Counted from the stretch's first letter, positions 788 through 5,283 are shown. The stretch: DNA of 39,604 bases from an uncultured Clostridia bacterium (GCA_964598465.1 CAZRCE010000001.1:1-39604); one strand, 5' to 3'. Numbers and translations are program-made. Notes: generated by a model from the letters alone, not told the origin.

Positions 788-1342
788 ATGGAACTATTTT
801 TTATTATATCTATATGCCTAATAGTAGTTATCGTAATTGCAATCTTTATTATTAATTTGATTTATAAAAATAAGCAAAACCAATCCCACCAAGATTTTGA
901 ATATATTCCGAATAACAATGAAATACAAAGTCAGAATATTGAAAACGAAACTACTGCTATTAAATACGAAATTAAATCAAAATATTTATCTTACTATGAA
1001 CTAAAATATTATGAAGCAATTCAAAATATTTTAGAAGGTAAATACATATTATTTCCGCAAGTACCACTATCTCAAATTATTGTTGTCAAGAATAAAAAGT
1101 CTAAATATCAAAGTGAGCTTTATAGAGTTATTGATTTTTGTATATTTGATAAAGACTATACCCCCCTACTCTGTATCGAAATTAACGACGAAACGCATCA
1201 CCAAAGAAATAGATATATCAGAGATAAAAAAGTTCAAAATATTTTAAACAATGCGGGGCTACCTCTTATTACTTTATGGACTAATTTCGAATTAAACATA
1301 AATTATATAGAAAATAGAATAAAACAGCACATAGAAATATAA
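788..1342 (+). CDS. membrane-anchored DUF2726-family (PD-(D/E)xK / Vsr-like nuclease fold) protein, AT-rich copy
   Basis: N-terminal TM helix (LFFIISICLIVVIVIAIFIINLIY), then FPQVPLSQI..RVIDFCIFD..LLCIEINDETHH..LPLITLW, the DUF2726 pattern. Paralog of 4744-5283. Confidence 0.8.
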   Translation: MELFFIISICLIVVIVIAIFIINLIYKNKQNQSHQDFEYIPNNNEIQSQNIENETTAIKYEIKSKYLSYYELKYYEAIQNILEGKYILFPQVPLSQIIVVKNKKSKYQSELYRVIDFCIFDKDYTPLLCIEINDETHHQRNRYIRDKKVQNILNNAGLPLITLWTNFELNINYIENRIKQHIEI

Positions 1343-1344
1343 AC

Positions 1345-1372
1345 AAATCCCTCGGAGTAATCCGGGGGATTT
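1345..1372 (+). terminator. weak terminator-like hairpin after DUF2726 copy 1
   Basis: AAATCCC..GGGATTT stem directly after the stop. No clear T tract. Confidence 0.3.
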
Positions 1373-1450
1373 CAATGTTAAAATTATCGAAGCAGTTTAC
1401 TGTACCCATTCCTTTATCTTCCGTTTATCCCAGTATAACATTTTTATTGC

Positions 1451-1486
1451 CTACGGCTTTGATAGTCAAACCGTAGCATTTTTTTT
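1451..1486 (+). terminator. hairpin plus T8 tract in a non-coding stretch
   Basis: CTACGG(c)TTTG-atagt-CAAACCGTAG followed by CATTTTTTTT. No ORF precedes it between 1343 and 1450. Confidence 0.45.
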
Positions 1487-1503
1487 GATAATGAAATGGC
1501 AGT

Positions 1504-1713
1504 TTGAAACAAAAAAAATCTCCACGAGAATTGTTTGACAATCAAACCATAAAAATGTTGCAGCCTACCCGCCGAAAGGCAAATAAAAATAAGGTAGGTA
1601 AAAAGGAAATGGCAGTGAAAAGCAACGAGTTAGTTCGACTTATCCAGAGTTTACGCTCTGTCGGTTGGACAGATACAGAAATTGTTGACTTGCTACTTAG
1701 TATAAGTACATAG
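1504..1713 (+). CDS. small hypothetical protein; start uncertain (TTG at 1504 or ATG at 1609, the latter giving 34 aa)
   Basis: ORF track. The C-terminal part (LVRLIQSLRSVGWTDTEIVDLLL) looks like a short helix-turn-helix-like segment. AAGGTAGG lies 10 nt upstream of the 1609 ATG. Confidence 0.3.
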   Translation: MKQKKSPRELFDNQTIKMLQPTRRKANKNKVGKKEMAVKSNELVRLIQSLRSVGWTDTEIVDLLLSIST

Positions 1714-1738
1714 TTAACATAAGCTTCTAAAAAAGACA

Positions 1739-1826
1739 AAAGCCGTTCCCCAACCAAGGCTAAACGGCTTTACATAAGTTGGAGGTTGCACCGGAGTAAA
1801 CCTACCTGCTCCACTTCCTCCAACTT
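1739..1826 (+). other. two consecutive strong hairpins (1739-1771 and 1776-1826)
   Basis: AAAGCCGTT..AACGGCTTT is a 9-bp stem. AAGTTGGAGG..CCTCCAACTT is a 10-bp perfect stem around a 31-nt loop with an inner GGAG/CTCC pairing. Confidence 0.5.
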
Positions 1827-1874
1827 GAATTTATTTTAAACTATTTAATTCAATTTGTCAAGGAGTAAAAAAAT

Positions 1875-2072
1875 ATGTTAAAAGCATACGACGAAATAAC
1901 AGGAAAAGAAATTAAAAAAGGTGATATAATAACAGATTTTCGAGGTGATAAAGACACTTTTGAAATGCCTTCGAGAGCGCGAACAGAATACAGAAGTGGA
2001 AAAGTTTGTACCAAAGAAGGTCGAGAGTATTACGACAGAGTTTTTAATATTATCGTAAAAGACGAAGAATAA
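1875..2072 (+). CDS. hypothetical 65-aa protein
   Basis: AAGGAG RBS 8 nt upstream of the ATG. Charged soluble protein with no recognisable motif. Confidence 0.5.
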   Translation: MLKAYDEITGKEIKKGDIITDFRGDKDTFEMPSRARTEYRSGKVCTKEGREYYDRVFNIIVKDEE

Positions 2073-2221
2073 TGAAAAGTTTCGTTTATATAATTCAAAA
2101 TAAATATGGTAAGCGTAAACCGTTTAAATCATATTTTCCTTTATCCGTCGGAGATTTAATTAAAATCGGCAAAGATAATACAGAATATGACGGTTTAATG
2201 GTTTGGAAAATCATAATATAA
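2072..2221 (+). CDS. hypothetical 49-aa protein, below the ORF-track cutoff
   Basis: ATG overlaps the upstream stop (TAATG). Reads MKSFVYIIQNKYGKRKPFKSYFPLSVGDLIKIGKDNTEYDGLMVWKIII. Followed by a terminator. Confidence 0.4.
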   Translation: MKSFVYIIQNKYGKRKPFKSYFPLSVGDLIKIGKDNTEYDGLMVWKIII

Positions 2222-2226
2222 TTAAT

Positions 2227-2259
2227 AAAGGCAGGGAGTTAATCTCTCTGCCTTTTTTT
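2227..2259 (+). terminator. rho-independent terminator closing the + strand small-ORF arm, convergent with the minus-strand module
   Basis: AAAGGCAGGGAG-ttaat-CTCTCTGCCTTT followed by TTTTT. Confidence 0.7.
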
Positions 2260-2357
2260 ATGGTTGATAAGCCTACCTCTACTATTAATATTCTTCACCT
2301 ATTAAATTAAGTAAACGCTCATTGTCAAATGCCTTTTTTATAATGCGGTAAGCTTCC

Positions 2358-3700: not shown

Positions 3701-3720
3701 AATTTTCTCCTTATAAGATT

Positions 3721-3751
3721 AAAACGGCGGGATAAATACCCCGCCGTTTTT
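3721..3751 (-). terminator. GC-rich hairpin (terminator or attenuator) directly after the 67-aa coat-like gene
   Basis: AAAACGGCGGG-8 nt-CCCGCCGTTTT, starting 10 nt after the stop at 3762. Confidence 0.55.
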
Positions 3752-3761
3752 GATTTGTTGG

Positions 3762-3965
3762 TTAACCGCGGAGGTGCAGGAAATTCTGTATTAATCCCAT
3801 AAGCAAGAAGAATATAGAAATTCCGAGACCGACGACGGCGAGCGTACCGAGGAAAGTTAAACCCGTTTCGGCATCGTAAAATACTTTTACGATAGACGGA
3901 AGGGTTTCGGCAATCCAGGTAGCTATACTCGTAAATACACCGGTAATCTGGGAAACAACGGACAC
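3762..3965 (-). CDS. 67-aa hydrophobic protein, candidate major coat protein
   Basis: GTG start with an AAGGGGGTG RBS embedded in the upstream gene end. TM segment LTFLGTLAVVGLGISIFFLLMGLI, basic tail HLRG. Confidence 0.55.
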   Translation of the reverse strand: MSVVSQITGVFTSIATWIAETLPSIVKVFYDAETGLTFLGTLAVVGLGISIFFLLMGLIQNFLHLRG

Positions 3966-3967
3966 GC

Positions 3968-4234
3968 TTATTCACCCCCTTTTGATTTATTATTTTCGAC
4001 CGACTGCGCATATTCGGTTAAAACCGTTTGAAGTTCGTTGAAATGGACAAGTAAAAGCTTCGGGTGTTTAAGAAGAAAACACTTCAAATCGTTAAATCTT
4101 CCTTCGTCGATAAACTTTTTACTTTTTTCCATAAGTTTGTCGTAAGTCATATTTTTGACCCCCCTTCGCTGAATGAAATAATAAGCTGTAAGTATAACTG
4201 CTATCACCGCAAACAGAATTACATATACAATCAT
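3968..4234 (-). CDS. 88-aa N-terminally anchored protein; start taken at the internal ATG
   Basis: The ATG at 4234 overlaps the upstream stop (TAATG). Reads MIVYVILFAVIAVILTAYYFIQRRG, then a helical soluble part. Confidence 0.5.
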   Translation of the reverse strand: MIVYVILFAVIAVILTAYYFIQRRGVKNMTYDKLMEKSKKFIDEGRFNDLKCFLLKHPKLLLVHFNELQTVLTEYAQSVENNKSKGGE

Positions 4235-4449
4235 TATTTCGCCTCGAACAAAGAGCCGTCGATTTCGCCGAGGCAAACCTTATAATCAGGTTCTACCGCG
4301 TAAAGGTCAGCAACCGAACGACCGAGTAATTCAGCAATAACCGAACGGTCGAAGCAAAGGAAAACAAGACGATAACCCAAATCGACATAAATGACGTCGA
4401 AATAATTACCCGCCTTAGCTTTGCGCTTCTCGTAAAAAATTTTGAACAT
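4234..4449 (-). CDS. 71-aa protein with weak motif resemblance to the inovirus gene V ssDNA-binding protein
   Basis: GGAGG RBS. YVDLG..LYAV..YKV..GSL occur in the same order and with similar spacing as YVDLG..LYTV..FKV..GSL of Ff gVp, recalled from memory. Confidence 0.45.
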   Translation of the reverse strand: MFKIFYEKRKAKAGNYFDVIYVDLGYRLVFLCFDRSVIAELLGRSVADLYAVEPDYKVCLGEIDGSLFEAK

Positions 4450-4541
4450 AAAAAAACCTCCGAAAAAAAATTTCCGAAGGCTAATTTATTGTAGGTACAT
4501 TCACCTGCCATAATGCAAAGATTATGCCAATTGAAGTATCC

Positions 4542-4560
4542 CGTAAAACATACTTTTTAC
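4542..4560. repeat. degenerate site copy with a 6-bp spacer (CGTAAAA-catact-TTTTAC)
   Basis: Inner arms are identical to the 658-691 site (CGTAAAA / TTTTAC). The spacer differs. Confidence 0.35.
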
Positions 4561-4607
4561 AAACAATTAAATGTTTGCGGTGATATGTAATTATATAAAT
4601 TTAATTG

Positions 4608-4639
4608 TTCGTAAAAGTCACTGTGTTTTACGAATAAAT
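4608..4639. repeat. palindromic site copy 2, hybrid form with a 9-bp spacer
   Basis: TTCGTAAAAG + TCA + CTGTGTTTTACGAATAAAT. The 10-bp and 19-bp blocks match copy 1 exactly, with 3 extra bp in the spacer. The outer left arm is diverged. Confidence 0.6.
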
Positions 4640-4708
4640 AGACTTACTCTCCAAACGGGTCGAAAAAGCGTGGAAGATTAGTCCACCATTGAAAAAACGA
4701 ATATTTGT

Positions 4709-4737
4709 TTGACTTTTTCCTCGTATTTTTATATAAT
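4709..4737 (+). promoter_or_regulatory. near-consensus sigma-A promoter placed for a leaderless DUF2726 transcript
   Basis: TTGACT-17 nt-TATAAT, then 6 nt to the ATG at 4744. No Shine-Dalgarno. Confidence 0.65.
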
Positions 4738-4743
4738 TGATTT

Positions 4744-5283
4744 ATGGAAACGTTTCTTCTTATCGTCGGCGGGGTCGCTTCTGCCGTACTGTTGTTTGTA
4801 GTTTTTCTGGTTTTTCTTCAATCTTACAAGGGACACAACCGCTTTCTTCTGTTTTTGCGTTACAAATTTTTCAAAAATAAGAAACAACGCAAAAAGTACG
4901 ACGCCTACTATTCCGTCAAACCGAGATACATTTCACCCTGCGAGGAAGAATATTTCGAAAAAATCAAGTCGTTAATCAGCGATAATTTCATTATTTTTCC
5001 GCAAATCCCCCTCTCTCAGATTGTCGAGAAGCATTCTCAATCTAATTATAAGACGGAGCTTTTCAGAGTAATCGATTTCTGCATATTCGACGAAAATTAT
5101 TATCCCGTTCTCTGCATCGAAATTAACGACGCAACTCACGTCGGAAAAAACAGAGCAAAGCGCGATTCCAAGGTCGCGGAAATTCTTAAATCAGCAAAAA
5201 TCCCCCTCCTCGTCCTCTGGACTTACGAGGATGCGGATTTGGGTTTCATAAAAAAATCGCTTAAACCATACGGCGTCGTATAA
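4744..5283 (+). CDS. membrane-anchored DUF2726-family nuclease-fold protein, second paralog
   Basis: TM helix FLLIVGGVASAVLLFVVFLVFL, a basic linker, then FPQIPLSQI..RVIDFCIFD..VLCIEINDATH..IPLLVLW. Confidence 0.8.
   Translation: METFLLIVGGVASAVLLFVVFLVFLQSYKGHNRFLLFLRYKFFKNKKQRKKYDAYYSVKPRYISPCEEEYFEKIKSLISDNFIIFPQIPLSQIVEKHSQSNYKTELFRVIDFCIFDENYYPVLCIEINDATHVGKNRAKRDSKVAEILKSAKIPLLVLWTYEDADLGFIKKSLKPYGVV

Follow-up and report, generated by a model that had tools for sequence, protein, structure and literature searches.

A predicted membrane-anchored DUF2726 nuclease-fold gene stands beside dif both in an integrated inovirus-like element and in its clostridial host: a candidate entry-exclusion function

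SNIPE (PD-lambda-1) of E. coli, a transmembrane (TM)-anchored cytoplasmic nuclease, cleaves phage DNA during injection and is toxic when its TM domain is absent (PMC13190303). In Vibrio, arrays of integrative elements exploiting host Xer (IMEXs), such as CTX-phi, TLC-phi with its factor XafT and the CTX-I inoviruses with pHVR cargo, occupy dif1 in an integrase-less, Xer-dependent manner, and degraded IMEXs keep their adaptive cargo (PMC12715192). In the XerS/difSL system of streptococci and lactococci, one recombinase gene of the ~355-aa class is genetically linked to dif (PMC2965235, PMC2731167), and Xer works at the septum with the membrane-bound FtsK (PMC2965235). DUF2726 proteins have been grouped among the families of restriction endonuclease (REase) fold and associated with mobile elements (PMC3424549), and have been seen fused to Abi-type N-terminal domains (PMC3710099), the two papers giving fold or association only and no function. 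Here we analyse a stretch of 39,604 nucleotides from an uncultured Clostridia bacterium (GCA_964598465.1 CAZRCE010000001.1:1-39604; hereafter the window), in which two DUF2726 genes, DUF2726-A and DUF2726-B (A and B below), each stand beside a dif-like site, A within an inserted inovirus-like element and B in the resident chromosome next to a xer gene. Loci used for comparison carry L numbers, and feature coordinates are collected in Table 1.

The assignment of both open reading frames (ORFs) to DUF2726 (PF10881), proposed by a first-pass annotation made from the sequence, was confirmed by profile scores of 55.8 bits for A and 57.1 bits for B against the Pfam gathering value of 24.7; both also matched phrog_14167, a PHROG of unknown function, and NCBIfam holds no family for either. 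The two cores, which share the motifs FPQ[VI]PLSQI, RVIDFCIFD, CIEIND.TH and W and had been judged by eye to be about half identical, were 48% identical, with 74% positives, in a BLASTP alignment of 122 aa. At the N terminus, a hydrophobic 19-mer (residues ~4–24; Kyte-Doolittle value 3.6 for A and 3.0 for B) is preceded by no Lys or Arg and followed by a basic stretch, and the same hydrophobic segment, consistent with a TM anchor, was found in 104 of 120 family members. As had been supposed, A and B are thus predicted to be held at the inner membrane face by one N-terminal TM helix, with the domain in the cytoplasm. The AlphaFold2 (AF2) model of B, built with a 41-sequence alignment (pLDDT 90.2), comprises a TM helix at residues 2–27, a short helix at 33–42, a linker and an alpha/beta domain, for which Foldseek against the PDB retrieved BstEII (E 3.6e-4), TnsA, I-Bth0305I, VRR_NUC and FAST/RAP. 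By this model the domain of A and B is a PD-(D/E)xK/Vsr-like REase fold with an alpha-beta-beta-beta-alpha-beta core. D111, E126, N128, D129 and H132 were invariant across the 41 sequences, consistent with the invariant acidic and His residues being the predicted active site, and the E-x-[N/D]-D-x2-H spacing is one that we take to match the Vsr/DUF559 motif. A PDB sequence search with the DUF2726 profile gave no match, and when the family was compared by hhalign with an approximate E. coli Vsr sequence, only the weak C-terminal RD...W motif aligned. In the predicted fold and in the motif layout, D...E-x-[N/D]-D-x2-H plus the C-terminal RD...W, the two proteins resemble the Vsr/DUF559/I-Bth0305I branch; Vsr and the homing endonucleases are soluble and sequence- or mismatch-specific, whereas A and B appear membrane-anchored and are without a recognisable DNA-recognition domain.

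The sites beside the two genes belong to a palindrome that occurs as a single copy (TTCGTAAAA-GCTGTG-TTTTACGAA) between glgP and DUF2726 in element-free relatives (L003–L014, L030–L032), and the site pattern was found three times in the window against 0.16 occurrences expected by chance. Because GC skew switches sign at the palindrome, from positive to negative in 12 of 13 loci, we take it to be the dif of this chromosome, served by a single-recombinase system of XerS-like type and located at the replication terminus. By blastn against the empty locus L003, window 1–691 corresponded to L003 7224–7905 and window 4602–7911 to L003 7871–11179. Since both flanks align to this empty locus, the comparison indicates a 3.9 kb insertion at dif with a 35-bp site duplication. 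The core of site 1 is identical to the empty-site core of the phage-free loci L003 and L009. The first-pass annotation had placed a palindromic site copy by each gene, and both are there; the copy by B has a 9-nt spacer instead of 6, and the pair constitutes attL and attR of one Xer-mediated insertion. Likewise, both genes had been put at the edge of the element, which holds for A, the first element gene after attL, and fails for B, which lies outside in chromosomal DNA; B as a prophage gene was rejected, because the empty-site alignment excludes it. The 9-nt attR spacer is identical in the related prophage of L023, and that of L033 is also 9 nt but differs in sequence (GTTTCTGTG).

A second dif-like site lies inverted within the prophage, ~45 nt from attR. 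In single-stranded DNA (ssDNA) the pair (window 4540–4640) can form a forked, internally bubbled hairpin, with z values of −4.1 for the minus strand and −3.3 for the plus strand; the same inverted pair recurs in the prophages of L023 (13222–13330) and L033 (5691–5794). This double-site hairpin resembles attP(+) of CTX-phi, and because of the CTX-like double att region, by analogy, integration of ssDNA is suggested, which would be irreversible once the site is double-stranded. Neither a recombinase or integrase ORF nor a recognisable Rep gene was detected within 692–4601 by ORF calls and Pfam. Related prophages carry replication initiators, Rep_1 in L028 and Rep_OBD in L050, and that of L023, lying in a different host locus with his operon flanks, has extra genes including one for a PAPS reductase-like protein; the one in the window may be a deletion derivative, or else a satellite. 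The products of the window element include small TM, coat-like proteins and one of 260 aa that combines a TM helix with a Walker A motif and is presumed to serve the element as its pI/Zot-like assembly ATPase. No Zot (PF05707) match was obtained for the latter even at E ≤ 5, nor any Pfam, PHROG or PDB match (five homologues were scanned with Pfam and PHROG), and its AF2 model built without an alignment was unusable (pLDDT 44); the protein may represent an undescribed pI-like family. The earlier description of a filamentous-phage-like element stays tentative for this 3.9 kb integrase-less insertion at dif, since no Zot/pI match was found in it; the small TM coat-like ORFs, along with the rolling-circle Rep genes of the relatives, keep the inovirus assignment plausible. 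No confirmed relatives were recovered among IMG/VR viral contigs with profiles of DUF2726 and of the 260-aa ATPase, and A had no tblastn match among the INPHARED phages.

The element is thus like the Vibrio dif1 IMEXs in being integrase-less and, by its insertion site, Xer-dependent, in its double inverted att region foldable in ssDNA, in the cargo and repressor genes placed by attP, and in the persistence of cargo from degraded elements (PMC12715192). It differs in that the host belongs to the Gram-positive-type Clostridia and has a palindromic dif next to the gene of its one XerS-like recombinase, that the att-adjacent gene encodes a putative membrane nuclease and not an HTH (helix-turn-helix) factor such as XafT, and that its presumed morphogenesis protein goes undetected by Pfam, PHROG and PDB models.

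The two copies have distinct histories. B orthologues of 58–85% identity occupy the same slot, in the order glgP-dif-DUF2726-xer-hflX-lexA, in phage-free genomes, and B is under strong purifying selection as judged from a ratio of nonsynonymous to synonymous substitution rates (dN/dS) of 0.03–0.04 (0.04 versus L003, beyond which synonymous sites are saturated). An A orthologue of 70% identity holds the same prophage position in L023, the host of which is without a resident copy, and a more distant homologue (~50% core identity) does so in L050. In a second prophage design (type ii: L018, L027/28, L034), an 88-aa HTH_3 gene overlaps DUF2726 in an operon that lies next to attR on its inner side and diverges from the structural genes. 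In a neighbour-joining (NJ) tree of the core domain, all phage-borne copies including A formed one clade, and the resident B-type copies its sister clade; L033, in which a phage-clade DUF2726 occupies the resident slot, fell with the phage-borne ones. A local duplication of A and B, against which the first-pass annotation had already argued, was rejected on these sister clades and on upstream similarity limited to the dif arm and ~15 nt. The composition that it had reported, 14 G+C for A and 23 for B in samples of 60 nt, was reproduced exactly, and in 5/5 prophages the DUF2726 gene has 22–28% GC against 36–40% in the phage backbone, the resident copies being nearer to host GC; the composition of the phage-borne gene is moron-like. 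Separate strong promoters were located as claimed, each gene standing about 100 bp downstream of its palindromic site, and they match the noted distances from site end to −35 (62 and 69 bp). The similar spacing arises because the phage gene is kept by attP and the host gene by dif.

Of the two independent arrivals that had been supposed, that of A with the phage was sustained, while B turned out to be vertically inherited, with an older mobile origin that we infer because Xer-ascertained relatives are without DUF2726 in the upstream sequence at hand, some with dif directly next to xer, other remnants sit in the slot, and the L033 phage-clade copy stands there. We propose that B became established in the dif-xer interval of an ancestor from which several species descend, and that selection has preserved it since. 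The dif-xer slot holds a RepL-like plasmid replication gene in L040 (8099–8545, minus strand) and an unrelated 176-aa ORF in L023, so that pieces left by various mobile elements seem to accumulate next to dif. This is in keeping with a series of Xer-mediated insertions, each restoring dif at its far end while earlier cargo stays by xer. A weak RepL-family match was also seen in L050 from ~12447 onward, just right of a dif-like site, with no xer within that locus. Separately, in L015/L016 (7732–7979) and L035–L037, a DUF2726 gene overlapping xer is preceded by two dif-like palindromes, ~220 bp from each other and with spacers of 6 and 8 nt; this pair could be the footprint of a past integration or a mini-element.

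Beyond this clade, the profile search listed at least 731 DUF2726 relatives at E ≤ 1e-8, and precomputed PF10881 assignments accompanied every homologue listed in three protein searches. Among four wider-family members on long contigs, three are lone chromosomal genes (L047, L052, L054), around which no xer or phage was seen nearby and no dif-like site was found, and one heads an inovirus-like prophage (L050). The TM-plus-domain design recurs in distant homologues on plasmids, in 444 records that are mostly of Klebsiella conjugative plasmids (392 are from Klebsiella), as exemplified by the MOBH conjugative plasmid NZ_CP060422.1 (L055 5848–6399), which encodes a 183-aa DUF2726 protein with an N-terminal TM helix followed by the domain. 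Because of these lone xer-free chromosomal and plasmid members, the DUF2726 family is not tied to Xer. Upstream of two of the lone genes, the intergenic DNA is rich in short direct repeats interleaved with small GC hairpins (L047 5420–5620, GTGAAGTT units; L052 5700–5900, CTCGATAT units), and a TRAM/tRNA-U5 methyltransferase gene neighbours DUF2726 in both L047 and L052.

The reading that we favour, tentatively and at a little less than even confidence, is that DUF2726 is a membrane-tethered nuclease, expressed in lysogeny, which excludes incoming ssDNA elements, B being a domesticated copy. In this reading, small inovirus-like elements integrate at the chromosomal dif through host Xer and, in Christensenellales-type Clostridia, carry by their att site a compositionally foreign nuclease-fold gene with its own promoter. 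The tethered nuclease would cut naked DNA emerging from the membrane, above all ssDNA that comes from conjugative elements or from other filamentous phages; its confinement at the membrane would separate it from the nucleoid, and outgoing ssDNA of the resident phage would be shielded by the ssDNA-binding coat. From a tethered nuclease that spares both nucleoid and coated outgoing ssDNA, a role in superinfection or entry exclusion would follow, for the prophage and, after domestication, for the host. Favouring this are the moron-like GC, the private promoter, the co-transcription with a repressor in type ii phages, the long-kept solitary copies, the entry as ssDNA of the elements that carry the gene, whether inovirus-like phages or conjugative plasmids, and the SNIPE precedent. 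SNIPE resembles the predicted topology of A and B in its one N-terminal TM helix, outside N terminus and cytoplasmic nuclease domain; it resides constitutively at the membrane, a sequestration proposed to spare the chromosome while entering DNA is cut. Yet SNIPE is much larger, with a DUF4041 DNA/TMP-binding domain and a GIY-YIG nuclease, whereas A and B are of ~180 aa and Vsr/PD-(D/E)xK-like, and its target is siphovirus dsDNA (double-stranded DNA) injection, whereas the carriers here are presumed ssDNA elements. In A and B, Pfam showed no domain but DUF2726, hence no DUF4041 or GIY-YIG, and because these domains and a PADLOC match are absent, the two are not SNIPE members and at most functional analogues.

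Several points weigh against exclusion. PADLOC returned no significant match of A or B to any defence model, and no DUF2726 homologue was found in INPHARED or IMG/VR. The prophage is integrated directly beside resident B, so that B failed to exclude the present phage or the phage evades B. All prophages examined were found via DUF2726, hence the sample gives no carriage rate, and the identity of the element as an inovirus-like filamentous phage is itself inferred, because the ATPase matches no Zot/pI model. The constant adjacency to attP, and to a repressor in some relatives, would also be expected of a lysogeny or integration factor.

Such a factor is the main alternative, which we regard as unlikely though deserving of weight: DUF2726 would be a membrane-tethered, nuclease-fold, DNA-binding Xer/dif accessory factor of the lysogeny module, activating or directing the XerS-like recombinase at dif/attP, as XafT does for TLC-phi, or processing the Holliday junction, so that the phage copy allows integration without FtsK control and the host copy serves dimer resolution or is exploited by satellites. 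Whether the arrangement is resident, type i or type ii, the gene adjoins a dif-like site, and it reads in the direction of xer wherever xer is in the locus; xer follows immediately downstream in 8/9 GTDB species matches, its start being overlapped by DUF2726 by 14 bp in distant relatives, and junction resolvases commonly have the PD-(D/E)xK fold. The repressor-DUF2726-attP order in L018, L027 and L034 mirrors RstR-XafT-attP of Vibrio (PMC12715192), and the septal action of Xer with membrane-bound FtsK (PMC2965235) also speaks for this alternative. The xer adjacency in this clade is, however, a trivial consequence of element integration at a dif that adjoins xer. No DUF2726 was present in the upstream sequence at hand of the Xer-ascertained loci L040, L042 and L043, or in the ~140 bp between the dif-like site and xer of L041 (the metagenome scan with an Xer profile yielded 8 loci, too few for statistics), and the sole copy seen in the locus is phage-borne in L023, L018 and L027. 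Moreover, three of the four wider-family contexts are without xer or phage, plasmid homologues share the same design, and the GC of the gene is foreign to the phage backbone. There is no similarity to XafT/DUF3653: Pfam found neither an HTH nor DUF3653 in A or B, and the likeness to XafT is positional, in the relatives L018, L027 and L034 only. An obligatory Xer cofactor was rejected, given its absence from Xer-ascertained relatives and a wider family without xer. In a bolder form, to which we assign a still lower probability, single-recombinase Xer systems would have in this protein a partner so far overlooked, its gene standing at dif and having a copy placed next to attP in dif-integrating phages; it would gate or complete recombination by FtsK-independent activation or Holliday-junction processing, as a Gram-positive functional counterpart of XafT/EndoIII in cholera-phage integration.

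An addiction or toxin module, in which the nuclease is restrained by the upstream HTH protein or by the membrane and stabilises the element at dif by killing cells that lose it, seems improbable. In L018 and L027/28 an 88-aa Xre-type HTH gene does overlap the DUF2726 start, resembling Xre-toxin or C-protein/REase pairs, and the toxicity of SNIPE freed from its TM domain (PMC13190303) points the same way. But this HTH gene sits in the place of a phage repressor, divergent from the structural genes; ORF calls and Pfam showed no HTH neighbour of A or B in the window, gene calls and intergenic spacing none adjacent to the resident copies of L003, L009 and L030–32, and resident copies have long been maintained alone under purifying selection.

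A part in element replication or processing, which the first-pass annotation had also entertained and which would here take the form of a nuclease nicking at or near att to start rolling-circle synthesis of phage ssDNA from the integrated copy, is the least credible reading and very improbable, for although the window element has no recognisable Rep and the gene adjoins a CTX-like double att region implying ssDNA integration, related prophages encode their own rolling-circle Rep genes (Rep_1 or Rep_OBD) besides DUF2726, known rolling-circle initiators are HUH enzymes and not Vsr-like, and neither the membrane anchor nor the phage-free resident copies nor the lone chromosomal and plasmid homologues fit.

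Table 1. Features of the window around the two DUF2726 genes
Feature	Coordinates	Strand	Remarks
DUF2726-A, 184 aa	788..1342	+	phage-borne; predicted TM helix + Vsr/REase-like domain; 24.9% GC
DUF2726-B, 179 aa	4744..5283	+	resident, chromosomal, between dif and xer; 40.6% GC
Promoter of A	754..781	+	TTGAAA-16-TAAAAT, extended TG; -10 ends 6 nt before ATG
Promoter of B	4709..4737	+	TTGACT-17-TATAAT, 11/12 matches; conserved in L003 and L030
Integrated inovirus-like IMEX, 3.9 kb	692..4601		from empty-site comparison
Site 1, attL, regenerated chromosomal dif	657..692		perfect palindrome TATTTATTCGTAAAA-GCTGTG-TTTTACGAATAAAT, 6-nt spacer
Site 2, attR, hybrid	4602..4640		phage-derived left arm, 9-nt spacer GTCACTGTG, host right arm
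Second, inverted dif-like site inside prophage	4540..4563		CCCGTAAAACATACTTTTTACAAA; ssDNA pairing with 4599-4634
260-aa protein, presumed assembly ATPase	2731..3513	-	N-terminal TM helix + Walker A GLRGRGKD; conserved in prophages L018, L023, L027, L034, L050
XerS-like tyrosine recombinase, 353 aa	5344..6405	+	own promoter 5309-5337
Xer half-site	5289..5316		AATTATTCGTAAAA; adjoins -35 of xer promoter; nearly invariant in seven loci

The gene order glgP-dif-DUF2726-xer-hflX-lexA is the same around the window locus and in phage-free relatives, and xer is linked to dif in both. The best NCBIfam match of the recombinase is XerS (NF003462), full length, with 196.4 bits against an equivalog cut-off of 267. 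As in the XerS/difSL system (PMC2731167, PMC2965235), a lone recombinase of the ~355-aa class stands beside its dif, and in the more distant Xer-ascertained relatives L039, L041 and L043 a dif-like site lies directly upstream of xer. The arms of difSL are unequal, whereas the dif of the window is a symmetric palindrome with a 6-nt spacer, and in the window lineage the DUF2726 gene intervenes between dif and xer. The half-site in front of xer and its 5′ flank are conserved although the neighbouring intergenic DNA differs among the seven loci, and it could be an autoregulatory operator of the recombinase; its derivation as a simple decayed attR was rejected, since conservation concerns the left arm and not the right arm on the host side. 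For A, B and xer alike, the −10 hexamer ends exactly 6 nt upstream of the ATG (776–790, 4732–4746 and 5332–5346), with no Shine-Dalgarno sequence; because of this short interval the three mRNAs are probably leaderless.

Two further features were recorded. Between hflX and lexA lies a 59-aa Cys-rich ORF with several CxxC pairs (window 7624–7803, minus strand), and a gene of 58–60 aa holds the same place in the relatives for which the interval was examined (L003–L014, L018, L027/L028). On the host side, the interval from the glgP terminator to dif contains at window 547–604 a repeated motif, AGATTAAATTAATT, and a 28-nt inverted repeat, a sequence that L003 does not share.

The DUF2726 family and its fold, IMEXs, and membrane-bound defence nucleases as kinds are already known. 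Not described in the literature surveyed are the recurrent att-adjacent DUF2726 gene of dif-integrating clostridial elements, with its predicted TM anchor, and the resident copy that is conserved in the interval from dif to an XerS-like gene. The family is large, with the relatives counted above and a common presence on Klebsiella conjugative plasmids, and no function is attached to it; this locus offers a concrete, testable setting. If it acts on Xer recombination, DUF2726 would be a new class of Xer cofactor. If entry exclusion is true, it would provide a minimal, fold-independent parallel to SNIPE directed at ssDNA invaders, and B would be a prophage accessory gene domesticated at the chromosome terminus. 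In addition, the locus documents IMEX biology, namely the capture of dif and a double att hairpin of the CTX kind, for uncultured gut Clostridia, in which hardly any of it has been described.

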